From positions 74,479 to 138,478 of the forward strand of contig OY970314.1 in NCBI GenBank assembly GCA_963716475.1: a stretch of DNA of 64,000 nucleotides, in the 5' to 3' direction. Under the pieces are notes generated by a model. The model was not told the DNA's origin. It did not search any database and saw only the letters and a program-made list of their open reading frames with translations. Position 1 is the first letter of the stretch. Every line of letters begins with the position of its first letter. Below are positions 13,846-31,612 of this stretch, in pieces. The DNA comes from Candidatus Woesebacteria bacterium (GTDB lineage Bacteria; Patescibacteriota; Microgenomatia; UBA8517). A program made the translations under genes and the position numbers.

Positions 13846-15228
13846 ATGTATCCTCCCCAAACCTCCCTGATCCCGGTTGCAGTAGCTCTTGCCAGGTTTT
13901 TGGGAGAGAAGGGCTTATCAGCCTTAACCTCCAGTTATCCTTATTGGTATCTGGGAACGACTCCTTACGGGTATTTGACAGGACCCGTTATCCCGATCCT
14001 CTCAGTTTTAGTTAAAAAAATCGCTTCAGGAGCTACATATTTTGATATCGAAATAGTATTGGTTCTTGCTTCCTGTCTGGCGTCTTCAGTAGGCTGGTCT
14101 CTTCTTGTAGCCAGAATTAAAGAAGAAAAAATAAATCTGTCATCTTTTGCGATCTATTTTCTGCTTTTCGCGGTTCTGCCTTGGAAGTACCTCAACGGAT
14201 TAGCTTTAGCCGAGCCCTCGGCATTTATTGCGGAAATGCTTATTCCGTATGTATTTTTGGCCGTGGCGAAAAACCGCTATCTTGGAATCATCTCGGTTTT
14301 GACAGTACTTCTTATTAGTACAAACGTGCTGCCGGTTTTAATTGTGGGGATGGCAGTTCTGGCCTTGACCGGATCGTTTACTGGGGGAAAATTAAAAAAA
14401 TGGAAGGAGTCTGTAAAAAGAAGCATTATAATTTTGATTTTTGGACTCGCTTTAGCGACTTTTTACTACACGCCGGGCTTTTGGCTGACAGTTTTGGTTA
14501 ATCCCTCTGTCGGGGGAGTTCCCGGGGTAAAAGCCATGCTGTCACTGATCGGAATGGCAAGAAACGCGATACCCATACTTCTTGCCTTTATTGTAATTTA
14601 CCTTTCAAGGAGAATTCCGGATAAAATTAGCTTTTTTGGCTGGGCATGGGTATTGGTTTTTGCTTTTCTGACCGTTTGGAGAGCTCTAGGTAACATCCAT
14701 TTTTGGATGGACTGGATAAGTTGGTTTGGGGAAATCGAGATAGGTTTAGGAATCCTGATTGCGGCCAATCTTAAGAACCTCCGCCGGCTTTTTCTTTTGG
14801 TTTTGCCGTTTCTTGCGACATTTCTGGTTTTTAATGCAATCGGGAAGCCCGTGCTTATCACAAAGAGTCCTCCGCCCGAAATAACAAGTATTTCCAAACT
14901 CGCGGGTCTTGCGGGCGGAAGTCTTGTTTTTACTTCAGGGACAGGTGTGTTTTGGTTGAATGCTTTTTATAATACACCGCAGGTGCGGGGAGGAAGGGAC
15001 GAGGTATCGGTCAGTTCCATGTGGCTTCCTGTTTCATATGCCCTAAGGGAAGGAACTGACGAAAAAGTTATTTCTCAGGACCTGGGTGAACTTGGTATTT
15101 CCTACATATTGGTCAATTCATATGCATCTTACGACTATTACCATGATTATAAGAACGTTAACCTTTGGGACAGTGTTGCTAAAGCGGTTTGGCAGGGGTC
15201 GGGAGACGTTATTTACGTATTCAAGTAA
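13846..15228 (+). CDS. polytopic membrane protein (about 12 TM), possible GT-C-type glycosyltransferase
   Basis: 460 aa, nearly entirely hydrophobic helices with a soluble C-terminal tail. No catalytic motif recognised. Confidence 0.5.
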   Translation: MYPPQTSLIPVAVALARFLGEKGLSALTSSYPYWYLGTTPYGYLTGPVIPILSVLVKKIASGATYFDIEIVLVLASCLASSVGWSLLVARIKEEKINLSSFAIYFLLFAVLPWKYLNGLALAEPSAFIAEMLIPYVFLAVAKNRYLGIISVLTVLLISTNVLPVLIVGMAVLALTGSFTGGKLKKWKESVKRSIIILIFGLALATFYYTPGFWLTVLVNPSVGGVPGVKAMLSLIGMARNAIPILLAFIVIYLSRRIPDKISFFGWAWVLVFAFLTVWRALGNIHFWMDWISWFGEIEIGLGILIAANLKNLRRLFLLVLPFLATFLVFNAIGKPVLITKSPPPEITSISKLAGLAGGSLVFTSGTGVFWLNAFYNTPQVRGGRDEVSVSSMWLPVSYALREGTDEKVISQDLGELGISYILVNSYASYDYYHDYKNVNLWDSVAKAVWQGSGDVIYVFK

Positions 15229-15394: not shown

Positions 15395-18300
15395 ATGCCC
15401 ACAAAAGAAAAAATCTCCGCGGTAAAAAAAGTTTTGGAAGGAATTTCTGTCTCTTCTGTTGCATCTGAGGCCGGGGTTGCCAGAAAAACAATATATTCGT
15501 GGCTAAATATTTATAAAGCCGCTGCCAAAAGAAACAAAAAAACCTGTCTCTTGCCCAAATATGTGGCGGGAAGGGCTCACCCGAGGGAATATACGCACAC
15601 TTTGGAGCAGAAGACAGTAAGACTAATAAAGAAGGACCCGACACTTAGCGTTTCCAAAATGGCTGAAAGATTAAACGCAGGACATCATGCGGTTTACAAT
15701 CTTTTAAAGGCCTTAAAATTGAACACAGAAGATTCCAGGCTTGCATACTCCCGGATTTACTCATATCCCGGTATTTTTGACCCCCAAATTAAGGAATCGG
15801 TTGCAAGGAAAATTGTGAATTCGGAAGGAAAAGTCACGGATATTTCCAGGGAGCTACGGGTTTCCAGAAAGACTATATATAAATGGTTAAAAGAATACAA
15901 AGAGAAGGGAACAGTAAGAAATAACTATTTGAAAGGTTTTGAACACCCCAGATCACTTGGCCCGGAGGCGGAAGCGTCAGTGCTCTCGCAAGTCGTAAAG
16001 GCGCCGGAACTTTCAATTCATGCCTTGGCCACCGGTTTAAACTTTTCCAATCATGCGGTTTTTAATATTCTAAAAAGAAATTTCCTGACTCAAAGAAATG
16101 CCAGGATTATCTATTCTCAGGCTCAGGCTATCCGGGTTTCCGAAAAACCGGAAGCTATCGGTTTTATCGACAGGATAAAGAGTGTTTTTGAAACCTTTAC
16201 TCCGAATCTGGCCCCGGCTCCGCCTCCGGGGGGAAAATCCAAGTTTAGCCCTCTTCTTAAAATCTCCCTGGCTTCGATAATCGTTTTACCGCTTTTCACT
16301 CTTGCCCTGGTCTATTGGGTGAATCTATTAAGGTCCGGTGCAGCAGGGAACGTCGTCGGGCTTATCTTTGCCACAATATCCCTGATTATGGGTACTTTCT
16401 TCTTTTTATATTCACTCAAATATTATTTTACGGTCGCTTTGGTTCTTTCCCGCACCCAGCAGGAAGGGTCAAAAAGCCGTACTTCTATCGGTCTTGAACC
16501 CAATCTCGATCACGTAATTCTCACAAAGAAGCCATACATATCAGTTCATATACCTTTTTATAATGAGAAGAATGTAGTAGAGCGTGCAATTGAGGCTTCA
16601 ACCAATTTCGATTACCCGGAGTATGAAGTGATTCTTTGTGATGATTCAACCGATGAAACAACAACCATTATCAGGGATTATCAAAAGAAATATCTTTCAA
16701 AAGGGGAGAGCTTAAAAATAACTACCAATAGTCAAGACGGCTGGGAGCTGTCCCATGTGGATGTCAGACCGGGAGTAACCCTTAAACATCTTCACAGGAT
16801 CTCAAGAGAAGGTTACAAGGGGGGAGCACTCAGGCTAGCTCTTACTCAGACTGATCCCAGGGCTGAGTTTGTCTCTGTCTTTGATGCCGATTTTGTTCCA
16901 TATCCTGATTCTCTAAACCTTTTCCTCAAGTACTTTAAAGCTGAGAATAACATGAGTGAGGATTATACAGTAAGTAAGGTTGCTGCGGTTCAAGGTTACC
17001 AGTGGCATGTACTTAATAAATCCGAAAACTGGATAACCAGGGGTGTCAGAAGTGAATATGCAGGTAGCTACGTTATCGAAAGAGCGGGAACTGAAATCTA
17101 TGGGGGACTAAAACAAATCTCGGGGTCAGTATATATGATTAGACGTAAGCCCCTAGAAGAAGTAGGCTGGGCCACATCAATCACTGAGGACTTTGAACTT
17201 ACTCTCAAACTATATAATGCCGGCTACAAGGTGGTCTATACACCTTATATACAAGCTCCTGCAGAATGTGTATCAACCCTAAGACGCTTAGTGAGGCAAC
17301 GTATGCGTTGGGCCGAGGGTCATTCTTTCAATGTCAAAAAGATGTTTGCAAAGCTTATGTTCTCTCCGAAACTTTCTTCTGCCGAGAAGTTTGAAACGGT
17401 TTACCTTGCCCCTTACTACCTTCAGGCATTCTTTTTTGTAGTCGGAACTCTTTCCTGGTTTATCAGTGAGACTCTCCTGCCTGCCCGTCTGCCTTTCTGG
17501 ACAGAACTTTGGGGATGGAGTCTGGTCTTAACCAACATGGTAGCCCTTCCCCTTATGAACACCGTCGGAATGTTCCTGGAAGAAAGTGAACAGAAGGACT
17601 ATACAGGAATACTATCATTCGTCGCTCTTTCATACCTTGTGGTCCCGTTTCAGGCCTACGCGGCTGTCAAGGGCTTTCTGGAGACCTCAGAAGGGCCTTG
17701 GTTTAGAACTCCCAAGACCGGTAGAATCACAGACGTCTTTGCCAGGGGTAAATTCTACAGGCTTATCAGACAGATCCTTCCCAGAAGAGCCACCTCATTC
17801 CAAAGTACTTATTCATACAACTACATTACCTTAACGACAGCAAATAATAGATTTAGCAATTTTAAAATAAAAAGGTCGGGAAATAAATATATTTCAAAAG
17901 CATTACTTACGGGATTAACGATTATTATTTTACTTTTGAATCAACTTAGCTTCTTTGCCCCGGGAGTACTTGCGGCAAGTCCTAACCCTACTATTGAACA
18001 ACAAATAAATTTTATGGATAAATTATACTCTACAACCAGCACGAGTGCCGCACCGGGCGATAATTCTTTAGGAATGTTTACTTGGAATGACTCAAAATAT
18101 AATAACGCAACTGTTAATATGGACTATGATGCTGGGAAAAGCGGAAACTTGTCTTATGGCCTAACTTCTGTGGGACTTTCTTTGGTTAATGGAACAACAT
18201 ACACACCGGCAATAAGGTATCAATGTCTTGCAGTGAGTGGAATAGCAACCGAATACGCTATTCCAGGGTTATATACGTCAGGTGGAGTTTTAGTTCAATT

Positions 18301-19282
18301 CTCAGAAGTTTCAATTTCTCTCGGCGAGGTTCCGGGTGGGAAATGTCCTACTTCAGCGAACAGAACACCTGCATATATTGCTGCGGCACGCCTAAGAATT
18401 GTACAGACAAATGCTACCGGAATTACAAATACCAGAAACATGATTGAACTGGGAGATGGTGAAACCATTTCAACAGGTACAACAGCAACTCAGCTAACTT
18501 ACCCCAAATATTGGCTTTATACATCGGGAAATTATGACGGGACTGTTACTACGACTTTTGAAGCGACTGTTTGGAGGGCCGGTGGCAGTTCATACACCGC
18601 CTACGTATGTCTGTATTCTACAGCAGGCAGTGAGATCGGGTGTGTGAGTACCACAAGTACATCCCCGGCTTACCCGACCGCAGTAAGCGTAACCCTGTCA
18701 AACGGAACCGAATATGAAGTAAGAGTCAAAGCCAGCGCAGCCGCAAAAACTGTATATATTGCAAACGCTAAAGTTATAGTTGATCAAGCAGCGGCAGGGG
18801 GAATTACCAAATTGGAAACAGTGCAACATTATAATAACACTCTGGCAACGGAATCAACATCTTCCTATGTTTCTAAGCAATTTTTAACCGAGTTTGTTTT
18901 GGATAACTGGTATGGCGGAACGTTTGCTGCCTATTTTGAGTCGGATATAAAGACTAATAACAGTTCAAATGCCTATTATGCTCGTTTGTACGATATTTAT
19001 AATGCTACCCCTATGGGAGAGATTACAGGTAATGATACTTCCTATGTTAGAAAAACCAGTTCGGATATATGGAGTTCTCTTGCTGCGGGTGGCAATACAA
19101 TGATAGACGTTCAACTGAAAAATAATTCGACCAGCACCACCTCATCATCAAATTCTTGGTTAATCATTAAAGTAACAAATTTACAAGTGCCCGAGAAGCT
19201 TATTTTTGCCCTGCCGTTGATATCCTTAATCCCGATTATAATTAAAAAAAGGAAGGAGATTCTATTAAATAGAAATGGTTGA
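15395..19282 (+). CDS. giant multi-domain surface protein 1: IS630-like HTH repeats + processive GT2 (cellulose-synthase-like) + Ser/Thr-rich ectodomain + VPE-type exosortase sorting tail
   Basis: 1295 aa. Two HTH pairs (…ARKTIYSWLNIYK…, …SRKTIYKWLKEYKEKG…). GT2 motifs VHIPFYNEKNVVERAIE, ILCDDSTDETT, FDADFVP and QRMRWAEGH (QxxRW), plus gating-loop-like WFRTPKTGRITD. Multiple TM helices. C-terminal tail VPEKLIFALPLISLIPIIIKKRKE. Confidence 0.85.
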   Translation: MPTKEKISAVKKVLEGISVSSVASEAGVARKTIYSWLNIYKAAAKRNKKTCLLPKYVAGRAHPREYTHTLEQKTVRLIKKDPTLSVSKMAERLNAGHHAVYNLLKALKLNTEDSRLAYSRIYSYPGIFDPQIKESVARKIVNSEGKVTDISRELRVSRKTIYKWLKEYKEKGTVRNNYLKGFEHPRSLGPEAEASVLSQVVKAPELSIHALATGLNFSNHAVFNILKRNFLTQRNARIIYSQAQAIRVSEKPEAIGFIDRIKSVFETFTPNLAPAPPPGGKSKFSPLLKISLASIIVLPLFTLALVYWVNLLRSGAAGNVVGLIFATISLIMGTFFFLYSLKYYFTVALVLSRTQQEGSKSRTSIGLEPNLDHVILTKKPYISVHIPFYNEKNVVERAIEASTNFDYPEYEVILCDDSTDETTTIIRDYQKKYLSKGESLKITTNSQDGWELSHVDVRPGVTLKHLHRISREGYKGGALRLALTQTDPRAEFVSVFDADFVPYPDSLNLFLKYFKAENNMSEDYTVSKVAAVQGYQWHVLNKSENWITRGVRSEYAGSYVIERAGTEIYGGLKQISGSVYMIRRKPLEEVGWATSITEDFELTLKLYNAGYKVVYTPYIQAPAECVSTLRRLVRQRMRWAEGHSFNVKKMFAKLMFSPKLSSAEKFETVYLAPYYLQAFFFVVGTLSWFISETLLPARLPFWTELWGWSLVLTNMVALPLMNTVGMFLEESEQKDYTGILSFVALSYLVVPFQAYAAVKGFLETSEGPWFRTPKTGRITDVFARGKFYRLIRQILPRRATSFQSTYSYNYITLTTANNRFSNFKIKRSGNKYISKALLTGLTIIILLLNQLSFFAPGVLAASPNPTIEQQINFMDKLYSTTSTSAAPGDNSLGMFTWNDSKYNNATVNMDYDAGKSGNLSYGLTSVGLSLVNGTTYTPAIRYQCLAVSGIATEYAIPGLYTSGGVLVQFSEVSISLGEVPGGKCPTSANRTPAYIAAARLRIVQTNATGITNTRNMIELGDGETISTGTTATQLTYPKYWLYTSGNYDGTVTTTFEATVWRAGGSSYTAYVCLYSTAGSEIGCVSTTSTSPAYPTAVSVTLSNGTEYEVRVKASAAAKTVYIANAKVIVDQAAAGGITKLETVQHYNNTLATESTSSYVSKQFLTEFVLDNWYGGTFAAYFESDIKTNNSSNAYYARLYDIYNATPMGEITGNDTSYVRKTSSDIWSSLAAGGNTMIDVQLKNNSTSTTSSSNSWLIIKVTNLQVPEKLIFALPLISLIPIIIKKRKEILLNRNG

Positions 19283-19838
19283 AAAAAGGAAAATTATAAA
19301 TATTTTGCTTATAGCCAGCCTAATTTTGGCTTTACTGCCTTTTTATGTGAGCTTTCAGGATTTACTTACAAATATAGTTATGAAGGTAAATTTGTATAAA
19401 GCTTTACAAAACACAATTGTGCCATATGAAATGAAAGTGGTAGGCGGAATTATAAACCTGTTACGTTTTCCGATTAGCGCAGGCAGTAGTTATTTTTCAT
19501 GGAATATAGCCAATGGTAAAAAAGAAGCAGTCTATTTGGCCTGGAACTGTATTGGTTGGCAGACTATGATACTGTTTTTGGTGACATTAGTTACAGGTTT
19601 TTCAAAAAGACACCTCTTAAGTTCAAAAATTGAAGCTATTTTAATAGGAGCGCTAGGGACATATATAATAAACATTGTAAGGATTACTGTTGTTATTTTG
19701 ATCTATTTCTGGTTTGGCCGGGGGTTTGGAATAATATTCCACGATTACTTCTCATCTCTAATTACAATATTCTGGTTAATAGGGTATTGGCTGTTTGTTT
19801 ATAAACATACCCTAATAGAAAAATCCGTCGAAGAGTAG
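19275..19838 (+). CDS. mini exosortase/archaeosortase-like polytopic membrane protein (cassette 1)
   Basis: 187 aa, about 5 TM. Conserved WNCIGWQ (Cys), NIVRITV (Arg) and IFHDYF (His) shared with the two paralogues downstream of the other giant genes. Its ATG overlaps the giant gene's end by 8 nt. Confidence 0.7.
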   Translation: MVEKRKIINILLIASLILALLPFYVSFQDLLTNIVMKVNLYKALQNTIVPYEMKVVGGIINLLRFPISAGSSYFSWNIANGKKEAVYLAWNCIGWQTMILFLVTLVTGFSKRHLLSSKIEAILIGALGTYIINIVRITVVILIYFWFGRGFGIIFHDYFSSLITIFWLIGYWLFVYKHTLIEKSVEE

Positions 19839-20437: not shown

Positions 20438-20473
20438 TTGACAGGTGTTAGGATGGTTGGTAACAATGAATAT
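20438..20473 (+). promoter_or_regulatory. sigma-70-like promoter upstream of giant gene 2
   Basis: TTGACA (20438) -N17- TAACAAT, then ATG 20474. The ORF track's TTG start at 20438 is this -35 box. Confidence 0.4.
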
Positions 20474-23400
20474 ATGCCCTTTTCCGAAGCTAAAAGAGAA
20501 AAGATCGTTTTATCCGTACTAAAGGATAATATTGCGGTTTCGGAAGTCTCCAGAAACTACTCTGTTGCCCGAAAAACTATTTACTCTTGGATAAAGAGGT
20601 ATAAAAAGGGAAGTCTTGCTCCACTATATACAAAGGGCAGGAAACACCCGGCGGCCGTATACCCGAAAGCCTATTCTTATATAAGTAGATGGGCTGTAGG
20701 GCACCCCAAGTGGGGATGCCGCACTTTGAGTAAAAGATTAAATGAAAAAGGAATCAGCTTGAGCTACGTTCAGGTTAACAGATTGTTGAACACAATCGGA
20801 GCGGAGACTTATGACAGAAGGTTGAATTATGCCAGAAACTTTGCCGGTCCGGGGAGAACCAGGGAGGATGTCAGGCTTGAAATTGTCAAAAAGGCCGTTA
20901 CCGGGAAAATTTCCATTACAACTCTTTCCGAAAACTACAAAGTTGCCCGTAAGACCATATATAAATGGATAGCGAAATACCGGGCCATTGGTAACATTAA
21001 AGATTCGTACGTCGTTGGTGAGGCTCATCCCAAGGCAATCTACCCGAAAATTACGCAGCAAGTACTCGACTTGGTCGTTACAAACCCCGGTTATTCGGTA
21101 CGCACTCTGGCTAAATCATTTCCGGCATCCTCTTGGACCATCTGGAGTATTTTAAATAGAAATAATCTGAATACATATAATTTAAGGCTCGAATATTCCA
21201 GGAATATATCTGAGGCTGCCGAAGAGAAAGTCTCGACAACGGGAGTTTCCGAAAGGATAAGATCTGTTTTTGAAAGCTTTACTCCAAATCTGGCTCCGGC
21301 CCCGCCTCCGGGGAAACGTAAAATCTTCAACTTCTTCATTATTTCAGTCTTCCTCTTATCAATATCCTTAGCAATTTTCTATTGGGGATCCGTAATTGTT
21401 CACGCTCCGAATATTGCCGGGTCCATAGGCATGATTTTTGCAGGCGTCTCACTGTCACTCGGAATGTTTTTCTTCCTTTATTCTCTTAAATACTATATTT
21501 CTACAGCGATAGTGCTTTCATATTCACAGAAAGAGGGCTTAGATGCCTCGAGAGTAAGCGCTACCGGCTTAAACTCAGACCTCAGTAACATTCATCTTGA
21601 ACGGCATCCTTATGTCTCGGTTCATCTGGCTCTCTATAACGAGAAGAATGTGGTGGAAAGACTGATGAAAGCAGCTACTTCTTTCGATTACGACAATTAT
21701 GAAGTAATCATCGCGGATGACTCAACTGATGAAACCACCGACAAAATCAGGGAGTTTCTGAAAACATTCCTTCCTAAAGGTGAATCGCTTCGGCAAACCA
21801 AAGGGGACGGGTGGGCAATGACAGAAGTTGACATAAGGAGCGGGGTTGTCTTTAAACATGTCCATAGAACCACAAGGATGGGTTATAAAGGGGGAGCGCT
21901 GAAGCTTGCCCTTTCTCTTACCGACCCGAAAGCTGAATTTGTTTCTGTCTTTGATGCCGATTTTGTGCCTTACCCAGATTCCCTGATGCTATTTCTTAAA
22001 TACTTCAAACTACAGAATAATGGATCAGAAGACTACAAAACAAGTAATACTGCATCAGTTCAGGGCTATCAGTGGCACGTACTTAATAAATCAGAAAACT
22101 GGATTACTAGGGGAGTCAGAAGTGAGTATGCAGGTAGCTACGTAATAGAAAGAGCCGGAACCGAAATCTACAAAGGCCTAAAGCAAATCTCGGGATCAGT
22201 TTACATGATCAGGCGCGATGTTTTGGAAGGAATAGGTTGGGGTACTTCTATCACTGAGGACTTTGAGCTTACCCTGAAACTCTACGAAAAAGGCTACAAA
22301 GTGGTTTATACGCCGTATATTCAGGCTCCGGCTGAATGCGTATCGACCCTAAGAAGACTTGTCAGACAACGTATGCGTTGGGCGGAAGGACATTCTTTCA
22401 ATGTCAAAAAGATGTTCGCAAAGCTTATGTTCTCTCCAAAACTTTCTTCCGCCGAGAAGTTTGAAACGGTTTATCTTGCCCCTTACTATCTACAGGCATT
22501 ATTCTTCCTCATCGGAACTCTCTCCTGGTTCATTTCGGAAACCATTTTACCCGCCCGCCTTCCTTTCTGGACAGAGCTTTGGGGATGGAGTTTGGTTCTG
22601 ACCAATATGATTTCACTGCCGCTTCTAAACACAGTCGGACTTTTCTTAGAGGAATCGGACAGAAAGGATTACTCGGGTATTCCATCTTTTATAGCTCTTT
22701 CATATATAGTTGTTCCGTTTCAGGCCTATGCGGCTGTAAAAGGCTTTCTGGAGAAGGAGGAAGGACCATGGTTTAGAACTCCGAAAACCGGCCGCATTAC
22801 GGATGTTTTCAAAAGAGGTAAGTTCTACAAATTTATTTCCGGGATCTTGCCGGGGAAGGCTGCCGGTTCTGCCACGAGTTATGATCTAAGTCCTTATCTT
22901 GCCCTGACCTCAGCCAATAATAGATTCAGCTCGTTCTCCATTCAAACAAGAAAAGGCAGAAGGTGGGTGGGAAAACTAATGCTAACCTCAATGCTTATTA
23001 TTTCCAATCTTCTTCTTTCTTTTTCTCCTTATATTGAATCAAGGGACGGCAACAGCCAACCTCCTCCGGGAACAGGTATTCTTATGGATGGCAGTACAAA
23101 AGGATCGGGAGGCAAGGTCAATTTAACTCCTGAGCAGCAGCAGTCTTTGGACAAATCGATTAAAGCGAATAACCAAAAAACAAGCTTTAAACTGGTTAGC
23201 GATGTCTCGGCAGCAGAAATATCCGGAGGCAGTGAGGTGAACACCTCCTTTGATGTTAAAAAGAAAGACCTTGAACTTAGCGGGGGAAATACCACCTTTA
23301 CAACTGATGAAAATCCCCAATTTACCTTAAAGCAGAACGACGGTTTTTGGGAATTTATCAAGAATATTTTCATTAAAGAAAAACCCTTGAAAGATCAGGT

Positions 23401-26400
23401 TGTTGTAACAGTTTTGGACTTAAAAGGTAAGGAGGTGGGAAGCCCGCAGGTGGTAGAAGGTGGAATTGATGATTTAAGTATAAATCTTGACAAAACAACC
23501 CTTACTCCGGGCGGATATACTCTTGAGATCAAAAGTGGGAGTAGCCCCGTTATCACCCAGGATTTCAGTTGGGGAGTGCTGGCAATAAATACCAATAAGT
23601 CGGTATATAGTCCGGGTGAAGACGCCTCCATTTCAATGGGGGTTCTTAATGAAGTTGGAGAAACGCTTTGTAGCGCGGGACTAACGCTTGATATTACAGA
23701 CACGGCAGGCACAGTTACCGCTTTAACCACAAAGGAGGGCACCATTAAAGTCAGCGATGAATGCAGCCTCAAGGGCTTCAGCCTGAAACCCGACTATGAA
23801 GCAGCCTACAAAACAACGGTTGCAGGAAAGTACAGCATGGTTCTGACTGCAGAGACTCTTAACGGCAAATATGTTATCAAGGGTTGGTTTGAGGCAAAAG
23901 ACTCGGTCGATTTTGACGTCGAAACGATTACGGCCTCCAGAATTAATCCGGTTTATGAATACCCGGTTATTTTTATAGTTAAGGCGGGTAAAGACTACAA
24001 TGGCATTGTTGAAGAAAAAGTCCCGGCCGGCTTTGAAATCAGTAAACTCAACGACTTAAAGTTGAATAACTATCTGGATTCTAAAGGGGAAAGTACGGCA
24101 AGCGGTAAACTTCAGGAGACACTGGTTAATGACGGTTCACAGGAGGCGGGACAAAAAACACTCCGTTGGATTGTTGACTGGAAAAAAGACCAGACTTATG
24201 TTCTTGCATACGCTTTTAAAGCGCCGATGGTCAGTCCAGAATTTTATCTACTCGGGCCGCTCTGGATCGGGGCATATGAGGGAGCGGGAGGTTGGCAGAT
24301 AGCCGCGGATAAGGTCCCTGCTGGGATTATTGTCGGTTGGCCGTCAACTGTAGCCTCAATTCCTAATCACTGGAGCAGGGTTTCAGGCGCGGCTCTTGAC
24401 GGGTACTTTTTAAGATCAGTAACAGCAACTGATCCGTCGGGTACTCCCGGAGGAAATGCCAGCCATACTCATTCACCGGCGAGTCATACTCATTCCGTTC
24501 CTGTCCATACACATACAGTTCCCGCTTTTGCCCAATCAACCAATACTTCGGCAACGACGGGTAACTCTACGGGTTCCGCCCGTGATACTCATACTCATGC
24601 GGCATTTAGTTCCGGAAATTCCAACGTAACCGTCAATAATGCCCAGACGGTTCCTTTTGCGGGACTTTCCAATGACCCCGATAATTCAACCGTCATCTGG
24701 ATCCAGTCGGACGGAGACCCGTCTACCGAAATTCCGGTAGGGTCTTATGTTTACTTTGACTCAAACACCATGCCGGGAGCCAACTGGGGTAGAGTAAAGG
24801 GAAATTACTTCCTTAAAGGTGCGGCAACGGGTTTAGGGGGAGGAACCGATACGGTAACAGGTTCCGCAACTCATACCCACGCCGCCTCAGCCGACCATAC
24901 CCATACTGAGGCTGCCCATACCCATTCAGGGAGCTCGGCAGGAGGTTCACTTGCTGTTTCCAGTACGGGAACTGGGTCTTACTCTCCGAGTGGCCATACA
25001 CATACCGTTACCTCAAGCTCCGTTGCGGCAACGGAGGGAGGAGCATCGGTAACCCCGACAGTCGGAGTGGCCGCTCCCTCGGGAGAACCTCCTTGGTACA
25101 AACTTAATATCATTAGTAAGTCTACAGGTGCTAATGAAACTCCTTTAAATGTCATTGCCATGTGGACCGGAACTCTGGCAACAATTCCCGACGGTTGGGT
25201 AATTTGTGACGGAACAAATGGAACTCCAAACCTGGGTACAAACTTTATCAAAGGCGCAAATGCCGACGGGGAGCTCAATACCACCGGGGGTTCCCTTACC
25301 CACACTCATGGGGCAGGCAATACCCATACACATACAATAAATGCTCACGTACACACCTGGACGGTTGGAGCTGCCTCCGGAACCGGTGTTGGATTAACGG
25401 GAAATGGAAGATCAGCCGTGGTCAGTACTCATACACATACCCTCAGCGCTGCGCAAACATCAAGTGGCGGAGGTTCAACAGGAACGGCAACTATTACGGC
25501 CGACTCGCAATCTAATCTTCCTCTCTACAAAGAGGTTGCCTACATTATGTATATCGGTAAGACTGTTGCCGGTAAAGCCTATTCGGATGAAGCAACCAGT
25601 ATCTGGGCCGGTTGTGACAACTCGACTGCCAGAATAAGTTTGGTAGTTAACGGCGGTACAGCCTCCACAACCTCATGCAGCAGTTCAGACGGATCTTTCA
25701 GTTTCAAGAATGTTACTCACGCGACAGATAATCCAATATCGGTATTTTTTAATACCGCAGGTAGCAATGCCGACAAAGGTGTGGCAGTTACTATCGCCAA
25801 CGATGCCACTACTCCGATTACCCTTAATCCCAGAAAAAATATTGTCTGGATGAGGAGTGAGAAAGCAACACCGACCATTACCAACTCCAATCTGGCTCAT
25901 TGTTATGCCTCAACCCCCGCAAGCTGTGCCAATGTCCCGTATTCTGCTTCGGGAGCCAATATAACCCTAACTACTGGAGTTGAGCTTCATGTAGAAAGCA
26001 GTATGACATATGATCCCGGGGGAACCACTGCAACCACCGGTACCGGAAGTCTGCATGTGGATGACAATGCTGTCGCATACTTGGATACTACTGGCAATAC
26101 CATTGCTAATAATATTTTAGTGGATGCCGGGGCGACCATTCATATTGATGCCAGTACGGCAGTAAACGGGGGAAATATCACGGTTACAGGTAACGGAATA
26201 GTATCTTCAGCCGCCGGAACCGTAACTATGGGGGCAAGCGGAACCATTGGGGGAGGATCAACAGGATCTACCTTCCAGTTAACAGATCTTGTTGTTTCTT
26301 CGGGGACTACAACCCTGGGGACGGATGCCGACAATATACTGGACTTTACCGGGGATATCAACGTTTCGGCCGGAGCCGTGCTTGCCATGAACAATAAAAC

Positions 26401-29400
26401 CGCTAATGTAGACGGAGGAAATCTGACGACAACTTCTACCGGGTCAGTTACCTGTTCAGGTTGTACGACTGGCGGTTTAACAATTTCAGGAGTCGGAACA
26501 ACAAATGGTATAGGCGGGGGAGGTGGAGCTATAACTTTATACAACCTGACACTTGACGGATCAACCAATACCACAACAGTCGGGTCAAGCGCCATTACGG
26601 TAACCAATGATGTAACAATAGGTACGGGAAGAACCCTGTCAGGAGCCGCATCAGGAACAATCTATGTGGGACACAACTGGGCCAACAGCGGCACTTACAA
26701 TGCCAACTCGGGAACTATTAATTTAAATGCAGCAGCCGATACTGTTCAACAGATAACAGGTGCGACCACATTTTATAATTTATATGTAGCTACTGGAGAT
26801 AGGATTATTAAATTTGGTTCATCAACCGCTTTTACCATTGATACCGGAGGAACCTTTACGGCAACAGGGGATTCCTGTTCGGCACTTGTGGTAATCCGTT
26901 CAACCACTTCCGGGAGTGCCGCAACAATTACCAAGACAGGTTCCGTTTCCTTCTCATATATAGATATACAGGATATCAACTTTTCGGCTTCTGCCTCGGC
27001 TTCTAATTCAGTCGATTCCGGAAACAACAGTAGTATCGTCATTGCAGCCAATAGCTGTCTTGGTGCATCAACCAATAACCAAGCCGCAACAGGTCATTCA
27101 TTCCAGAGAAAAGTATTCTATGATTCCGGGAATAATGTCTACTGGGGTTTCTACCATGACGGAACCCAGATCGAAGTCAGGTATTCATCAAATAGTGGCT
27201 CTACTTGGAATGTAGAAAATGACCATCTGGTACAAAATACCAACGACTTTTCCGTCTGGGACCAGACAATCTCCTCCTACTACGTCTTTTTGGCAGCCAA
27301 AAGCAGCGACAGTATTGTCTTAAGAAGAGGAACAATAACTTCAGGTGCAATCTCATGGGACAGTGAAACAACTCCGGTTACAGCCTTTACGGGGACGGGT
27401 TCAGGCGATTCTTATTCCTATCCCTATATCTCTGCCGATTCATCCGGTAATCTCTGGGTGGGAGCCAGATATTTTAACGGATCAAGTTATGTCTACAAAG
27501 CAGTCAAAAGTAACAATGCAGGAAGTGCTACCTGGACAAACGCTGCTTTTACCTGGGGAGATCCTTCTCAAATCTCTAATGATCAAGCCGACCCTAACGT
27601 TTTTGGCAATGTAGTATCCATAGGCTCGCTGAATATGTACGCAACATTCGTAGTAGGTACAACTATCAAAGGCTGTAAATACACCAATTCTCCTCCTGCC
27701 TGGAAGAATTCAGCAGGGACAGATTCATGCGTAACAACCGAGGGTAGTGGCGGCGGGGAGTCAACATATTTTGATAGCTTAAGTACCGGGTTAGTTGCGT
27801 ACTGGAAAATGAATGAAACTTCCTGGACAGGAGCGAGTAACGAGGTGGTTGATTCATCAGGCAACGGTAACAATGGAACTCGTGTAGGCGATGCAACAAC
27901 AACGGCTGCAGGGTTTTATAGGTCAGGAACGTTCGATGGGACGGGAGATAGGGTTTCTGTTCCTGACAAGACAGACTGGACATTATCGTCCGGAATAGAT
28001 CTGACATATTCAACCTGGATTAATTATACCGTATTGCCGGGGAGCACCAATTGGCCTGGTATTGTTGAAGGAGGTGATGATATGTATGGTTTCCAAATGA
28101 ATGGGCCCACTACCGGGAATATAGTTGTAGATTGGTGGGACGGTACTGTTGACCATACATCATCTTCGCAGGCTGTATCTGTCGGTACCTGGTATCATGT
28201 CGTGATAACTTTAGATTTTGGTGTAACTAATGGTTCCCATTGGTATTTTAACGGTAGAGACCTTGGAACTTTTACCGCACAAGATCGCAGTGTAAATCCT
28301 GATGCACTATATATCGGAGGTAGTGTTACCAATCCCGTTTCAAACAACGCTGTTAATGGAAAGATTGACGATCTGAGAATTTATAACAGGCTACTCTCTG
28401 GTGAAGAGGTTGCCAAACTTTATCAATATGCCCCGGATAGAGTCAATATCGACGATGCCAGTGATTTTAATGCTCCGTCCGGTAGACAAGTTGTTAGAGC
28501 GAAAAACGGGGATTTGTATACTTTTGTCAATGATGCGGGGACATGTGGGGTATGGAAGTCAACTGATGGAGCAAGTTGGTCAGAACAGGATAGTACTCAT
28601 CATAAAACTTGTATGAGTTATTCGGGGGTATCAATAGCGATTGATTCAACTGATAAGTTACATCTTTTATACGCTTCAGGATCCAACACCTTACAATATG
28701 ACACGTTTACTGCCGGGGCTTTTTCTATTCTTAATGAAAATATTTATAATGATGTTGGTGGCAATGGGCTAGGGGGTTTTGATATTGCTGTTGATGCAAA
28801 TAATATTCCCCACGTAGTCTATGTATACATAGACACGTTTACCGATAATCAACTTGGTTACGATAACCGTGTAGGTGGCGCTTGGAATGGTTCAGATGCT
28901 AACCCCGATACTGATAGTGTCGGATTGCTGTCTCCAACAATAGAGATTAATGAAACTGGGTATCCGGAAGTCTCATATATAAAGGCTAGTACTGGGGTTT
29001 TAGTGGCTAAGGCGGGAAACGGAAATGACCCCAATTTATGGGCAGGTTATAGTATAGATACGAGCGTTAATGTTACTGGCGGTCAGGGGGGTGCTTCAAT
29101 TGCAGTAGACACCTTGACCGGTAATACGTGGATAGCGTATGTCGACGGGGATAACGATATTTCTTTGGCAAAATATTCAGGGACGGATTATTCCGGATGG
29201 GAGACAGCCGGTAACTGGGCCACCGTGACCAGTAAAAGCGACGATGGGTACGACCCGTCAATTGCCATTACCGGACCTTCCGATATTTATGTTTTTTATC
29301 AGGATGATGGGGTGGCGGATAACGGAACTAATAAAAGGATCTCTTACGATATATATGATTCGATAGGAGAAGATTGGGCCGGGGAAGTTCCCCTACAAAC

Positions 29401-31612
29401 TCCAAGTTCAGGAGATTTTAAAACTGTTAAAGCCAAGTGGAGTTTTGAATGGAATAATTATGGTGCAAACAGGATTGATTATCTTTTCTCCGACGGAACC
29501 GATGTCTTCTGGAGCTATCTATACCTCCGCCGTCAGCCGACCAATATAGATGACGCCTCAAATATGGGAGCTCTTCCGGGAGAAGGCAGGCAGGTGGTGA
29601 GAACGTCAAGCGGGTATCTTTACTCTTTTATTGCCGGGAAAATGTGGAAATCAACCGATGGTGGAGCGACCTGGGCTCAAAAAGGTGCGAGTAAATCAGG
29701 CATTTTTAACACTCTAGCAGTGGGGTCGGATGATACATTACATGTCACCTTTGGGACGAGTACTACAGGTATTTTTTATGATACTTTTTCTACGTCTTCT
29801 GAAGCTTTTGCGGGATTAAATCAATCGATACATGCTTATACTGCAGGAGAGTCTATTGAAGATAGTGTGTCGATGGCATTGGATTCGAATGATATACCGC
29901 ATGTAGTTTATATTTATAACAATTCAGGCGCCACGGATACTTTTTTGATTTATGACAGCAAAGTCGGGGGTTCATGGCATACTCACTACTTGGTTTTGGA
30001 AGATAACGCGACGGGAGGCACAACCGATATTTTTAGCCCCGAAATAACGATTAATGAATCTGATTATCCTGAGGTTGTTGAATATAATGCCATGACCGGA
30101 ACGGTTCGAGGCAAGGCGGCAAATGCCAATGCTGCGACGGCGTTTGCGACCTATGTTATAGATGACAGTGTTGTAGGAACGCCGACTATCGGTATTGATT
30201 CGTCAGGAAATACCTGGGTGGCCTACGCAGACTCGGGAGATAAAATATCACTTGCAAAATACTCGGGCACTGATTTCACAGGCTGGTATACCTCGGGAAA
30301 CTGGGCTGTGAATACAAGTAAAACTCAAAAAGGATATAAACCTTCGATCGTAGTTGACGGAACTAATATTCGTGTTTTATATCAGGACGACCAAAACGAT
30401 ATTGTTTATGACACGTTTAACGGAACAAGTTGGAGCGGGGAGACTCTTCTGGAGGAACATGCAGCCCTGCAGGATGTTAAAGCCAGAGGGAGCTTTCTGA
30501 ATAATTATGATTCAACCGGGGTAGCACAGTTGAAATATAATACCTATTATTTTAATACTTACGATGGCGAACTTGGTGATCCGAATGGCGTATGGGGTAA
30601 TGATGCAAGCGCCTTTGATGGAAATACCGGTACCTCTGCCACTTCCGGCGTAAATGGGTCAACATCAAGTAATTATTTAATGGGTACAGGAACCAGTGCG
30701 CCGGCAAGCGGAGAAACGATCAGTAGTGTTCAGGTAAGATTTTATGGTGGTCAAGTTGTTGATTCTAATACAACGGTATATGCGACAGTTTCTTCTGGCG
30801 GAACAGAAATTGGAACAGCTACTATTTTTAAACTCAATGATCCCGCCTGGAGTGGTTTTGTTACTCTTTCTGCGCCCGGGGGAAGCTGGGACTGGTCTGA
30901 GGTGCAGGGATTAAATGTAAAATTATATGCCACAGGCATAGTGACTGGCTCTGTAGCGGTAAGGAAAGTGGAGATACAGGTCAAATCGACAAGTACAACT
31001 TCTCAGGCAGAAGTTGATTATGTGTATTCTGATGGCACGGATGTGTTTTACAACCGCCTGCTTTTAGGCGGTACCAGCTCAATTTCGGGAACCCAGGATC
31101 CGATTGACGACTTGATCCCCGCTGATATATCTAAAAATATCTCAACAGTTGCCGACGGGAGCGGGAATGTCCACATACTTTATATCAAGGACTCCGCTAC
31201 GGATTATGTAGCTTACAAGAAGTGGAACGGGACAAGCTGGGATGTAAGCCCGACGAGTATTGAATCAAACGCCAACGCAGCCTATCTGACACTATCCCGT
31301 GCCTCGGATACGGGAGATCTCTATGCCCTTTGGATTGACACATCCGCCAATACAATCAGAAAAAGTATATTTACCTCAAGCTGGTCCGGTCCTACCGCCT
31401 GGCAGAATCCGGGTGTAACAATCACAAACCTTTCCTCTTCGTATTCTGCATCCGCAGTATTTTCTGAGTGGACAATCGGAGCCCTTGCTCCTTTTGAAAT
31501 AAATGCTGGCGTGCTTAAAGTTCCAGAATATCTGCTTTTATTCCTACCCCTTGCACCGCTTTTGCCGTTTTTATCAAGAGTTAAGAAGAAAAGGGGAGCT
31601 CTGATTAGGTAG
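20474..31612 (+). CDS. giant multi-domain surface protein 2: HTH repeats + GT2 + ectodomain (His/Thr repeats, beta-helix-like, LamG-like, tandem BNR-like modules) + VPE-type sorting tail
   Basis: About 3712 aa from MPFSEAKREK, by analogy with the gene 1 N-terminus MPTKEKIS. GT2 motifs VHLALYNEKNVVERLMKA, IIADDSTDETT, FDADFVP and QRMRWAEGH, plus WFRTPKTGRITD. LamG-like block (…DDLRIYNRLLSGEEVAKLYQ). BNR/Asp-box WKSTDGGATW. Tail VPEYLLLFLPLAPLLPFLSRVKKKRG. Confidence 0.85.
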   Translation: MPFSEAKREKIVLSVLKDNIAVSEVSRNYSVARKTIYSWIKRYKKGSLAPLYTKGRKHPAAVYPKAYSYISRWAVGHPKWGCRTLSKRLNEKGISLSYVQVNRLLNTIGAETYDRRLNYARNFAGPGRTREDVRLEIVKKAVTGKISITTLSENYKVARKTIYKWIAKYRAIGNIKDSYVVGEAHPKAIYPKITQQVLDLVVTNPGYSVRTLAKSFPASSWTIWSILNRNNLNTYNLRLEYSRNISEAAEEKVSTTGVSERIRSVFESFTPNLAPAPPPGKRKIFNFFIISVFLLSISLAIFYWGSVIVHAPNIAGSIGMIFAGVSLSLGMFFFLYSLKYYISTAIVLSYSQKEGLDASRVSATGLNSDLSNIHLERHPYVSVHLALYNEKNVVERLMKAATSFDYDNYEVIIADDSTDETTDKIREFLKTFLPKGESLRQTKGDGWAMTEVDIRSGVVFKHVHRTTRMGYKGGALKLALSLTDPKAEFVSVFDADFVPYPDSLMLFLKYFKLQNNGSEDYKTSNTASVQGYQWHVLNKSENWITRGVRSEYAGSYVIERAGTEIYKGLKQISGSVYMIRRDVLEGIGWGTSITEDFELTLKLYEKGYKVVYTPYIQAPAECVSTLRRLVRQRMRWAEGHSFNVKKMFAKLMFSPKLSSAEKFETVYLAPYYLQALFFLIGTLSWFISETILPARLPFWTELWGWSLVLTNMISLPLLNTVGLFLEESDRKDYSGIPSFIALSYIVVPFQAYAAVKGFLEKEEGPWFRTPKTGRITDVFKRGKFYKFISGILPGKAAGSATSYDLSPYLALTSANNRFSSFSIQTRKGRRWVGKLMLTSMLIISNLLLSFSPYIESRDGNSQPPPGTGILMDGSTKGSGGKVNLTPEQQQSLDKSIKANNQKTSFKLVSDVSAAEISGGSEVNTSFDVKKKDLELSGGNTTFTTDENPQFTLKQNDGFWEFIKNIFIKEKPLKDQVVVTVLDLKGKEVGSPQVVEGGIDDLSINLDKTTLTPGGYTLEIKSGSSPVITQDFSWGVLAINTNKSVYSPGEDASISMGVLNEVGETLCSAGLTLDITDTAGTVTALTTKEGTIKVSDECSLKGFSLKPDYEAAYKTTVAGKYSMVLTAETLNGKYVIKGWFEAKDSVDFDVETITASRINPVYEYPVIFIVKAGKDYNGIVEEKVPAGFEISKLNDLKLNNYLDSKGESTASGKLQETLVNDGSQEAGQKTLRWIVDWKKDQTYVLAYAFKAPMVSPEFYLLGPLWIGAYEGAGGWQIAADKVPAGIIVGWPSTVASIPNHWSRVSGAALDGYFLRSVTATDPSGTPGGNASHTHSPASHTHSVPVHTHTVPAFAQSTNTSATTGNSTGSARDTHTHAAFSSGNSNVTVNNAQTVPFAGLSNDPDNSTVIWIQSDGDPSTEIPVGSYVYFDSNTMPGANWGRVKGNYFLKGAATGLGGGTDTVTGSATHTHAASADHTHTEAAHTHSGSSAGGSLAVSSTGTGSYSPSGHTHTVTSSSVAATEGGASVTPTVGVAAPSGEPPWYKLNIISKSTGANETPLNVIAMWTGTLATIPDGWVICDGTNGTPNLGTNFIKGANADGELNTTGGSLTHTHGAGNTHTHTINAHVHTWTVGAASGTGVGLTGNGRSAVVSTHTHTLSAAQTSSGGGSTGTATITADSQSNLPLYKEVAYIMYIGKTVAGKAYSDEATSIWAGCDNSTARISLVVNGGTASTTSCSSSDGSFSFKNVTHATDNPISVFFNTAGSNADKGVAVTIANDATTPITLNPRKNIVWMRSEKATPTITNSNLAHCYASTPASCANVPYSASGANITLTTGVELHVESSMTYDPGGTTATTGTGSLHVDDNAVAYLDTTGNTIANNILVDAGATIHIDASTAVNGGNITVTGNGIVSSAAGTVTMGASGTIGGGSTGSTFQLTDLVVSSGTTTLGTDADNILDFTGDINVSAGAVLAMNNKTANVDGGNLTTTSTGSVTCSGCTTGGLTISGVGTTNGIGGGGGAITLYNLTLDGSTNTTTVGSSAITVTNDVTIGTGRTLSGAASGTIYVGHNWANSGTYNANSGTINLNAAADTVQQITGATTFYNLYVATGDRIIKFGSSTAFTIDTGGTFTATGDSCSALVVIRSTTSGSAATITKTGSVSFSYIDIQDINFSASASASNSVDSGNNSSIVIAANSCLGASTNNQAATGHSFQRKVFYDSGNNVYWGFYHDGTQIEVRYSSNSGSTWNVENDHLVQNTNDFSVWDQTISSYYVFLAAKSSDSIVLRRGTITSGAISWDSETTPVTAFTGTGSGDSYSYPYISADSSGNLWVGARYFNGSSYVYKAVKSNNAGSATWTNAAFTWGDPSQISNDQADPNVFGNVVSIGSLNMYATFVVGTTIKGCKYTNSPPAWKNSAGTDSCVTTEGSGGGESTYFDSLSTGLVAYWKMNETSWTGASNEVVDSSGNGNNGTRVGDATTTAAGFYRSGTFDGTGDRVSVPDKTDWTLSSGIDLTYSTWINYTVLPGSTNWPGIVEGGDDMYGFQMNGPTTGNIVVDWWDGTVDHTSSSQAVSVGTWYHVVITLDFGVTNGSHWYFNGRDLGTFTAQDRSVNPDALYIGGSVTNPVSNNAVNGKIDDLRIYNRLLSGEEVAKLYQYAPDRVNIDDASDFNAPSGRQVVRAKNGDLYTFVNDAGTCGVWKSTDGASWSEQDSTHHKTCMSYSGVSIAIDSTDKLHLLYASGSNTLQYDTFTAGAFSILNENIYNDVGGNGLGGFDIAVDANNIPHVVYVYIDTFTDNQLGYDNRVGGAWNGSDANPDTDSVGLLSPTIEINETGYPEVSYIKASTGVLVAKAGNGNDPNLWAGYSIDTSVNVTGGQGGASIAVDTLTGNTWIAYVDGDNDISLAKYSGTDYSGWETAGNWATVTSKSDDGYDPSIAITGPSDIYVFYQDDGVADNGTNKRISYDIYDSIGEDWAGEVPLQTPSSGDFKTVKAKWSFEWNNYGANRIDYLFSDGTDVFWSYLYLRRQPTNIDDASNMGALPGEGRQVVRTSSGYLYSFIAGKMWKSTDGGATWAQKGASKSGIFNTLAVGSDDTLHVTFGTSTTGIFYDTFSTSSEAFAGLNQSIHAYTAGESIEDSVSMALDSNDIPHVVYIYNNSGATDTFLIYDSKVGGSWHTHYLVLEDNATGGTTDIFSPEITINESDYPEVVEYNAMTGTVRGKAANANAATAFATYVIDDSVVGTPTIGIDSSGNTWVAYADSGDKISLAKYSGTDFTGWYTSGNWAVNTSKTQKGYKPSIVVDGTNIRVLYQDDQNDIVYDTFNGTSWSGETLLEEHAALQDVKARGSFLNNYDSTGVAQLKYNTYYFNTYDGELGDPNGVWGNDASAFDGNTGTSATSGVNGSTSSNYLMGTGTSAPASGETISSVQVRFYGGQVVDSNTTVYATVSSGGTEIGTATIFKLNDPAWSGFVTLSAPGGSWDWSEVQGLNVKLYATGIVTGSVAVRKVEIQVKSTSTTSQAEVDYVYSDGTDVFYNRLLLGGTSSISGTQDPIDDLIPADISKNISTVADGSGNVHILYIKDSATDYVAYKKWNGTSWDVSPTSIESNANAAYLTLSRASDTGDLYALWIDTSANTIRKSIFTSSWSGPTAWQNPGVTITNLSSSYSASAVFSEWTIGALAPFEINAGVLKVPEYLLLFLPLAPLLPFLSRVKKKRGALIR
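28442..30560 (+). repeat. intragenic tandem duplication of an about 370-aa BNR/Asp-box-containing module within giant gene 2
   Basis: Module A starts VNIDDASDFNAPSGRQVVRAKNGDLYTF…; module B starts TNIDDASNMGALPGEGRQVVRTSSGYLYSF…. Shared blocks: NIPHVVYVY/DIPHVVYIY, ISLAKYSGTDYSGW/ISLAKYSGTDFTGW, YVFYQDD/RVLYQDD. A third degenerate copy lies near 31080. Confidence 0.7.

Follow-up and report, generated by a model that had tools for sequence, protein, structure and literature searches.

Giant proteins of a Candidatus Woesebacteria contig combine a BcsA-like glycosyltransferase core with a predicted exosortase sorting signal

What do three giant glycosyltransferase genes of a Candidatus Woesebacteria bacterium encode, and why would a polysaccharide synthase carry a large ectodomain? 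The genes (g1, g2, and g3) lie on the forward strand of a 64,000-nucleotide stretch of contig OY970314.1 (positions 74,479 to 138,478; assembly GCA_963716475.1), which we call the window. An earlier note on this DNA, made from its letters alone, had proposed that each gene contains the core of a processive, cellulose-synthase-like family 2 glycosyltransferase (GT2). We propose that the proteins are self-contained envelope modules, in which a synthase-translocase resembling BcsA or hyaluronan synthase (HAS) is joined to an ectodomain that would be processed at a VPE motif by a neighboring exosortase. We give this proposal a probability of roughly 60%. It builds on what the analysis shows, namely the fold, the conserved motifs, and the linkage of the genes, and it extends, conditionally, to processivity, a product, cleavage, and an acceptor.

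The glycosyltransferase core

The g1 gene (15395..19282, + strand) encodes 1295 amino acids, as judged from its open reading frame (ORF), its translation, and its Pfam and NCBIfam matches. From the N terminus, its parts are two helix-turn-helix (HTH) modules, two transmembrane (TM) helices, the GT2 domain, further TM and interface (IF) helices, a loop similar to a gating loop, another TM segment (TM6), the ectodomain, and a tail with the VPE sorting signal. The paralogs g2 (20438..31612, + strand; 3724 amino acids as called; core motifs at 21635-22804) and g3 (35013..41273, + strand; 2086 amino acids; core motifs at 36027-37169) have cores that are 68% and 64% identical to the core of g1, respectively.

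All of the signatures that the earlier note had quoted are present in the translations of the three genes, where it had placed them. These are YNEK (at nucleotide 16559 in g1, 21635 in g2, and 36027 in g3), DDSTDE (16640, 21716, and 36108), FDADF (16880, 21950, and 36333; DAD of g1 begins at 16883), QRMRW (17297, 22367, and 36732), and WFRTPKTGRITD (17699-17734, 22769-22804, and 37134-37169), all on the + strand. The longer pattern (F/L)YNEKNVVER is right in its general form but not letter by letter, as g3 has FYNEKYVVER instead. To these we add TED, within SITED (17183, 22253, and 36618, + strand), which was absent from the earlier list. This set of motifs in g1-g3 is far beyond chance.

The GT-A catalytic domain of g1, together with the IF2 helix, spans 16526..17365 (+ strand) and is supported by Pfam, a PDB search, alignment, and a structural model. 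Matches to the Pfam GT2 families PF13632, PF13641, and PF00535 are above cut-off (1e-16 to 1e-18). In a phmmer search of PDB sequences, BcsA matched at 2e-14, with DxD, TED, and QxxRW aligned. (DD at residues 416-417 and DAD at 497-499 of g1 align to DDG and DCD of BcsA; SITED, with TED at 597-599, and QRMRW at 635-639 align to TVTED and QRIRW.) Like processive GT2 synthases, then, the core has a GT-A domain with the nucleotide-binding aspartate and DxD, a TED catalytic base, and a QxxRW acceptor motif. Across 92 aligned homologs (the g1 residue number is the alignment position plus 269), D147, D148, D228, D230, T328, E329, D330, R367, M368, R369, and W370 are invariant, and conservation is 90% or higher at W500, R502, T503, K505, G507, and T510, which belong to the WFRTPKTGRIT loop. 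When the whole family profile was compared to E. coli BcsA, hhalign gave a probability of 98.5%, with an alignment that ends at QxxRW; a search of PDB sequences with the family profile matched the GT-A part only.

Is the core a cellulose synthase? The NCBIfam models for PgaC and CelA match at about 1e-24, yet far below their cut-offs. For cellulose synthase proper (BcsA), the scores are 85.4 bits with TIGR03030 (cut-off 699.1) and 58.7 bits with NF008558 (cut-off 992), and for the poly-N-acetylglucosamine (PNAG) synthase PgaC/IcaA (TIGR03937) they are 87, 67, and 86.5 bits (cut-off 422.3). Because these cut-offs are widely missed, the core is not a cellulose or PNAG synthase proper. As for the other hallmarks of BcsA, g1-g3 have no PilZ match in Pfam, and no BcsB-like match appeared in the Pfam scans that were run on other ORFs of the window. 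On its sequence, we classify the GT2 core as a divergent, otherwise ordinary member of the well-known class of processive GT2 synthases.

The earlier note had suggested structure prediction as a check, and the result agrees with its proposal. In an AlphaFold2 model of the g1 core (built on the 92-homolog alignment; pLDDT 87 overall and about 90 in the loop; pTM 0.83), a GT-A domain is flanked by membrane helices. The top matches of this model in the PDB, according to Foldseek, are BcsA from E. coli and Rhodobacter (4e-20 to 8e-15), followed by hyaluronan synthases, chitin synthases, and plant CesA; the best matches are all membrane-integrated, processive GT2 synthases. As in processive synthases, TM and interface helices sit on the GT domain, and the similarity goes beyond the soluble GT-A core.

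The TM1-TM2 hairpin (amino acids 286-355; 16250..16459, + strand) is indicated by hydropathy and by model helices 17-45 and 48-86. QRMRW lies in model helix 360-386, which is followed by helices 405-425 and 433-459, by a proline-kinked helix (464-493), by the loop (494-519), by a disordered linker, and by a last helix (563-582). In g1, the two TM helices and the third, proline-kinked and IF3-like helix correspond to amino acids 674-762 (17414..17680, + strand). The gating-loop-like motif EGPWFRTPKTGRITD (amino acids 765-780; 17687..17734, + strand), which is thus preceded by a proline-containing helix, is supported by conservation, the model, spacing, and a weak alignment to BcsA. Between the loop and TM6, g1 has 15 lysines or arginines, and farther downstream come an ectodomain of all-beta structure and a C-terminal helix that ends in basic residues. 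Such a topology calls for a cytoplasmic loop, and hence for a third helix that is an interface helix like IF3 of BcsA. Of the "3 TM helices" that had been described after QRMRW, all three are modeled as long helices, but the third is probably not a membrane crossing.

The gating loop is FxVTxK in BcsA, and HAS has a version of the WGTSGRK type. The loop follows QxxRW by 134 residues in g1, and by 133 or 134 in almost every listed homolog that has both motifs. E. coli BcsA, with QRIRW at position 493 and FNVTAKG at position 617, has a spacing of 124. With a sub-profile of the region after QxxRW (HMMER, and hhalign in greedy mode), eegpWfRtpKtGritd pairs with hkGkFnVtaKgGlvee of BcsA. The WxRTxKxG loop is likely equivalent to the gating loop of BcsA.

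Alternatively, the core might be a non-processive membrane glycosyltransferase that adds single sugars to polyprenyl phosphate, a glycerolipid, or a protein, in the manner of PcManGT, Dpm1/GtrB, or an MGlcDG synthase, without translocating a polymer. The window is rich in genes for polyprenyl-linked glycosylation (an undecaprenyl diphosphate synthase, a polyprenyl synthase, GT-C enzymes, and a Dpm1-like GT2), and the Joint Genome Institute's name for one homolog (P0082) is "1,2-diacylglycerol 3-beta-glucosyltransferase." But the best match is BcsA, which aligns to the g1 core over about 100 residues more than does PcManGT (PDB:6yv7), a minimal cellulose-synthase-like mannosyltransferase that has just three TM helices (PMC10569066). 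Also, TED, QxxRW, and a BcsA-like T/K loop are all conserved, and with the right spacing. We consider a non-processive enzyme to be unlikely.

The cores of g1-g3 share with BcsA (PDB:4p00, 4hg6, and 9b8v) a GT2 domain of GT-A fold between TM helices; the D, DxD, TED, and QxxRW motifs; and an interface helix that is followed by a T/K loop about 125-135 residues past QxxRW. Nevertheless, the identity is about 20%, the CelA and BcsA hidden Markov models (HMMs) score far below cut-off, and g1-g3 lack PilZ, have two N-terminal TM helices instead of four, and have WxRTxKxG instead of FxVTxK. Neither BcsB nor BcsC was found among the scanned window ORFs of at least 150 amino acids. Finally, g1-g3 add the HTH modules, the fused ectodomain, and the sorting signal. 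Class I hyaluronan synthases and PgaC/IcaA also have two N-terminal TM helices and a GT2, with a gating loop to which the WxRTxKxG loop would correspond, and need no outer-membrane partner, but they lack an ectodomain, a sorting signal, and HTH modules.

Sorting tails and exosortase-family genes

Each of the three proteins ends in [V/I]PE, a short proline-rich helix, and a basic tail. In the translations and in an alignment of tails, these putative sorting signals are VPEKLIFALPLISLIPIIIKKRKEILLNRNG in g1 (19187..19282, + strand), VPEYLLLFLPLAPLLPFLSRVKKKRGALIR in g2 (31520..31612, + strand), and VPENPLLLFGLYPLFAGFLKKLRRK in g3 (41196..41273, + strand). Downstream of each is a small multi-TM ORF of the exosortase/archaeosortase family, as scored by the NCBIfam signature TIGR04178 (cut-off 23 bits). 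These are x1 (19275..19838, + strand; 187 amino acids; 38.3 bits), which overlaps the g1 stop by 8 nucleotides; x2 (33555..34127, + strand; 190 amino acids; 32.2 bits), which a GT-C gene separates from g2; and x3 (41283..41888, + strand; 201 amino acids; 31.6 bits), whose close homologs are publicly named "exosortase/archaeosortase family protein." Cys92 and His156 are present in all 48 full-length exosortase homologs, and Arg136 in 47 of them. With a TIGR04178 match and conserved Cys, Arg, and His, x1-x3 belong to the exosortase/archaeosortase superfamily. None of them reaches the cut-off for a named subfamily (ArtC, ArtH, XrtG, XrtH, XrtS, XrtX, or CrtC); the best score is 31.2 bits, for x1 with ArtC (cut-off 100).

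Does the pairing hold beyond this contig? In a scan of one genome per species, we found 403 related stretches and took 73 loci for analysis. These loci contain 50 GT2 ORFs of at least 600 amino acids whose 3' ends lie inside the locus. Most of these complete homologs (42 of 50) have PE, a hydrophobic helix, and a basic cluster at the C terminus, and 29 of 50 are followed, on the same strand and within 1 kb, by a match to the exosortase profile. The consensus of 43 tails is [V/I]-P-E-x-x-[L/I]-[L/F]-L-L-x3-P-[F/L]-[L/I]-P-x-[L/I]-[V/I]-basic, with the P in 43/43 and the E in 41/43. A strict form of the motif occurs in just 24 of the 2473 ORFs of the 73 loci, and 21 of these are GT2 proteins. 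Of the three others, one runs off the contig at its 5' end and one lies right after a GT2 ORF that has no tail, so these may be split or truncated genes. In 4 of 120 listed homologs (P0093, P0096, P0102, and P0116), an exosortase is fused past the tail, and the fused domain of P0096 matches PF09721 of Pfam above cut-off. In the last ~160 residues of each of g1-g3, no named CTERM sorting domain of NCBIfam matches even with E values up to 1 allowed, so the tail is an unnamed signal. It has the make-up of a tripartite sorting signal (motif, hydrophobic helix, and basic end), with an adjacent or fused exosortase.

Exosortase systems have been called dedicated if one enzyme and one target are encoded by consecutive genes (10.1101/2023.06.07.544157). 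By this usage, we predict that the g/x pairs are an unnamed dedicated exosortase system and that its substrate is the synthase polypeptide itself.

A different role for the C-terminal helix would be as a second membrane anchor that packs on the synthase, as BcsB does on BcsA, while the exosortase-like protein does something else. BcsA-BcsB and natural BcsAB fusions combine a synthase, extracytoplasmic folds of the carbohydrate-binding type, and one C-terminal TM helix, which parallels the order of synthase, module similar to carbohydrate-binding modules (CBM-like), and C-terminal TM helix here. Also, 21 of the 50 homologs have no exosortase that was detected within 1 kb. However, we found no sequence or fold homology to BcsB in g1-g3, and their terminal helix, unlike that of BcsB, has a conserved PE motif and its own exosortase. 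The tail has the classical tripartite form, with its P and E nearly invariant; in its strict form it is nearly confined to GT2 proteins; and an exosortase homolog with Cys, Arg, and His comes after it or is fused to it. We consider a mere anchor to be quite improbable.

How would a sorted synthase work? Each of g1-g3 would encode one self-contained envelope module. The pair of HTH modules at its cytoplasmic N terminus would probably be regulatory. Two TM helices would lead to a cytoplasmic GT-A domain of the GT2 family, with its D, DxD, TED, and QxxRW, and two more TM helices, the interface helix, and the cytoplasmic WxRTxKxG loop would complete a fold of the BcsA/HAS type. A glycan derived from nucleotide sugars would be polymerized and threaded through the protein's own TM bundle, and the loop would cover the active site in the way that the BcsA loop does. 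Another TM segment would lead the polypeptide chain outside, to an ectodomain that varies by lineage (CBM-like in g1; LamG and others in g2) and ends in the tripartite signal: [V/I]PE, the short proline-rich helix, and the basic tail. The adjacent exosortase-family protein, with its Cys, Arg, and His, would cleave the signal and move the new C terminus of the ectodomain to an acceptor, which might be a lipid or a glycan.

Several points weigh against this scheme. First, of the resemblance to FxVTxK that the earlier note had seen in the loop, the conservation, the spacing, and the cytoplasmic side stand, but the alignment of the loop to BcsA is not significant by itself (-1.4 bits; hhalign probability of 24%). 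Second, we infer a continuous channel, and a loop over the active site, rather than reading them from the coordinates of the model. Third, no specific synthase-family model in NCBIfam reaches its cut-off for g1-g3, so we do not assign a product. Fourth, QxxRW is also found in some GT2 enzymes that glycosylate lipids. Fifth, the 21 homologs with no detected exosortase nearby count here as well, and cleavage of the tail by this exosortase subfamily is a prediction.

The closest known systems have similar components, differently arranged. In PEP-CTERM/XrtA systems, an exosortase and its tagged targets are reportedly linked to exopolysaccharide loci. In the XrtG/Firmicu-CTERM system of Firmicutes, an exosortase-family protein, a C-terminally tagged target, and one or more GT2s are encoded together (PMC12854382). 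In both, as here, an exosortase, a tagged target, and a GT2 share a locus, but those systems make the target and the glycosyltransferases as separate proteins. In g1-g3 they are one polypeptide, and in some homologs the exosortase is fused as well. The XrtG models score far too low (TIGR03110, 13-16.2 bits for x1-x3, cut-off 102.75; TIGR03111 for the GT2, 24 bits, cut-off 364), and the HMMs for XrtP and its associated glycosyltransferase are far below cut-off too. Archaeosortase A is said to cleave a tripartite signal, leaving the protein lipid-anchored. Archaeosortase A/PGF-CTERM and ArtC/PEF-CTERM involve the same enzyme superfamily as x1-x3; the differences are the bacterial host, the VPE motif, and the synthase-fusion substrate, and because the cut-off for ArtC is missed, x1-x3 are not members.

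So, an exosortase with a GT2 and a tagged target is a known theme, and what is new is to find the synthase and the target on one polypeptide. The literature that we covered on exosortases, archaeosortases, XrtG, and the glycan synthases of Patescibacteria or Microgenomates (which did not include the 2012 archaeosortase paper) does not describe this fused architecture. What exosortases use as acceptor, and why they travel with exopolysaccharide genes, have been questions since PEP-CTERM and EpsH were described. Here the glycan synthase would be the exosortase's substrate, and in a few species the polypeptide includes the exosortase itself, which would reduce the acceptor problem to one or two expressible genes. 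The arrangement is widespread, and it would tie polysaccharide synthesis physically to protein sorting.

Ectodomains, cytoplasmic modules, and upstream elements

The ectodomain of g1 (17978..19186, + strand) consists of all-beta, CBM-like sandwich modules. Its model contains beta-sandwiches whose best structural matches are carbohydrate-binding modules. (The homolog search found only 7 relatives of this region, so the model rests on a shallow alignment, and its first ~130 residues are unreliable.) In g2, Laminin_G_3 (LamG) is significant at 2e-21, and there are two Asp-box motifs and sub-threshold matches to phage tail collar (18.8 bits; cut-off 24) and to BNR_4 (14-18 bits; cut-off 27.3). The earlier suggestion of ectodomains with folds like those of carbohydrate-binding proteins is thus supported by the sandwiches of g1 and the LamG domain of g2. 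Of the folds that it had named (LamG, BNR, and beta-helix), LamG alone is significant, and BNR fell short. Also in g2, [STA]H[STV]H motifs occur nine times in a His/Thr-rich segment (amino acids 1281-1760; 24278-25717, + strand). A portion of this segment matches PDB:6ov6, "C24 protein" (8.7e-11), a tail-fibre protein (3e-4), and, at the sub-threshold score, the phage tail collar domain. Comparing g2 to itself with BLAST gave no internal repeats, and a domain scan of the g3 ectodomain gave no matches. Ser and Thr together make up about 23% of all three ectodomains.

Does the ectodomain stay attached to the synthase? TM6 of g1 (amino acids 832-861; 17888..17977, + strand) resembles a signal peptide, with a basic n-region, a hydrophobic core, and then APGVLAA/SP. 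The protein may therefore be a polyprotein, which signal peptidase would cut after TM6 into a synthase and an exosortase-sorted surface protein or adhesin that are merely translated together. Nine of 75 homologs have the same AxA-like TM6 layout followed by IEQQINII(D/N), or more loosely IEQQIN(I/F)(I/M)D (L004, L014, L047, L048, L050, L062, L064, and L071 are among these loci), and in two homologs of the g1 ectodomain (P0125 and P0127; ~400 amino acids) the aligned sequences lack a GT2 core. On the other hand, a clear AxA site is missing in g2, g3 (by hydropathy and translation) has three TM segments on the way from the loop to the ectodomain, and the fusion is retained in hundreds of homologs. 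We regard the polyprotein as possible but doubtful, and it would refine the proposed envelope module rather than exclude it. What had been called a giant ectodomain is probably a sorted surface domain, given three features that the earlier note had missed: the sorting signal at the C terminus, an exosortase gene dedicated to each protein, and the HTH modules at the N terminus.

At the other end, the cytoplasmic N terminus of g1 (15395..16150, + strand) contains two transposase-type HTH modules (HTH_28/HTH_23/HTH_32/HTH_Tnp_1; Pfam, 1e-11 to 1e-14, above cut-offs), and g1-g3 each begin with two such modules (1e-11 to 1e-15). The HTH region of g3 had no match among PDB sequences at E ≤ 0.1. Could the HTH-GT2 fusions be artefacts, such as remnants of insertion sequences (IS), frameshifts, assembly chimeras, or inactive GT2 relics? 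The modules do resemble the N termini of IS481, IS630, and IS3 transposases, although the IS481/IS630 similarity is below NCBIfam cut-offs. But neither Pfam nor NCBIfam finds a transposase catalytic domain in g1-g3, and we rejected an identity as an IS element or transposase, as only the HTH modules are present. Furthermore, the arrangement of two HTH modules and a GT2 occurs three times in the window and in most of the homologs from Patescibacteria, in independent assemblies, and the catalytic residues are all invariant. This conservation effectively refutes an artefact, to which we give almost no weight.

In other lineages, different modules take this place. Chloroflexi-type homologs have an N-terminal response-regulator receiver domain instead of HTH, in one group of homologs three RNA-polymerase alpha-CTD domains are inserted past the gating-like loop, ahead of TM6, and some members have no N-terminal module (P0047). 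(The homologs with receiver or alpha-CTD modules that we examined, P0084, P0070, and P0075, are from other phyla.) With HTH, receiver, alpha-CTD, or nothing, depending on the lineage, the cytoplasmic face seems to accept interchangeable modules. By analogy, these are probably regulatory, with a role comparable to that of PilZ in BcsA.

Sequence elements upstream of the genes may be relevant to the HTH modules. Upstream of g1 (15351-15380) and g2 (20438-20467) is a shared promoter element, TTGACA-N18-...ATGGTTGGTAACAAT. It has two matches in the window, versus none in 100 shuffles. Upstream of g3 (34936-35005) are two copies of the palindrome TGTTAACA, preceded by GTTACCCAC. These are the only copies in the 64 kb, and the palindrome occurs near the start of 16-17 of 73 homologous genes, while about 0.7 would be expected. 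(The loci listed for the upstream elements are L001, L004, L006, L007, L010, L015, L022, L023, and L052.) The elements might serve as an operator to which the HTH modules of these very proteins bind, or as the promoter of a special sigma factor.

As called, g2 starts at a TTG (20438) that is the -35-like TTGACA of its promoter element. The true start is probably the ATG at 20474 (MPFSEAK..., which aligns with MPTKEK... of g1), which would give 3712 amino acids and a nearly leaderless mRNA.

In a bolder version, each module would produce a protein-glycan conjugate by itself: after a cut at VPE, the exosortase would ligate the new C terminus of the ectodomain to the glycan that emerges from the same polypeptide's channel, or to its lipid primer, and the membrane-tethered HTH pair would bind TGTTAACA / GTTA...TAACA in its own promoter. 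We consider this speculative and unlikely. If it is true, then one machine (synthase, cargo, tag, and sometimes sortase) would build a glycan-tethered surface layer, and an exosortase acceptor would be identified at last.

The wider family and the neighboring genes

How large is the family? Used as a query, the g1 core retrieved 1541 relatives at E ≤ 1e-5. When the search was made exhaustive, 404 clusters (50% identity) reached E ≤ 1e-30; the best 150, which were listed, span 558 to 3654 amino acids. The nearest related loci are from Woesebacteria and other Microgenomates. The minimal members among the listed homologs have only ~270-330 residues beyond the loop, and the giants of the window are expansions of the region after it. 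The GT2-exosortase family is also among the main sources of giant surface proteins in the Patescibacteria of Microgenomates type. These bacteria are thought to live attached to other cells, so the variable ectodomains are candidate host-contact structures. Public annotation already labels homologs as [quoted passage not shown] Several records of metagenome-assembled genomes that contain a Patescibacteria-type gene are titled "uncultured Gammaproteobacteria" or "Bathyarchaeia" (L005, L011, L012, L016, L017, L020, L052, and others), and these titles are probably errors of binning or taxonomy.

Judging by its genes, the window is an envelope-glycan island. It encodes a WecG/TagA transferase, a sigma factor of the extracytoplasmic function (ECF) type, polyprenyl and undecaprenyl diphosphate synthases, a Dpm1/PpgS-like GT2, an epimerase, a GT4 glycosyltransferase, methyltransferases, a PTPS_related membrane protein, and three radical-SAM enzymes (SAM being S-adenosylmethionine). 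Between g2 and x2 is a GT-C-type membrane glycosyltransferase with TPR (31625..33550, + strand; PMT_2/TMEM260-like, Pfam 4e-26), which is probably accessory. After the g3 cassette is a Dpm1/PpgS-like polyprenyl-phosphate glycosyltransferase (43082-43813). Together, these two could O-glycosylate the Ser/Thr-rich ectodomains.

Two multi-TM proteins recur with the family. The first (13846..15228, + strand; 460 amino acids) has no match in Pfam or NCBIfam, and its homologs are found in 23 of the 73 loci, on the same strand and usually within ~1 kb of the GT2, so it is a possible further component. The second (43814-45154), with a sub-threshold PTPS_related match, recurs on the same strand near GT2 or exosortase genes in 16 of the 73 loci. 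The two are distant relatives (25% identity; E = 9e-8).

Farther along, the three radical-SAM enzymes form a run (55558-60615) that is interleaved with SAM methyltransferases. A B12-binding domain is significant in one of the three and sub-threshold in a second, and the run is preceded by the PTPS_related membrane protein (999 amino acids) and by a protein of 927 amino acids.

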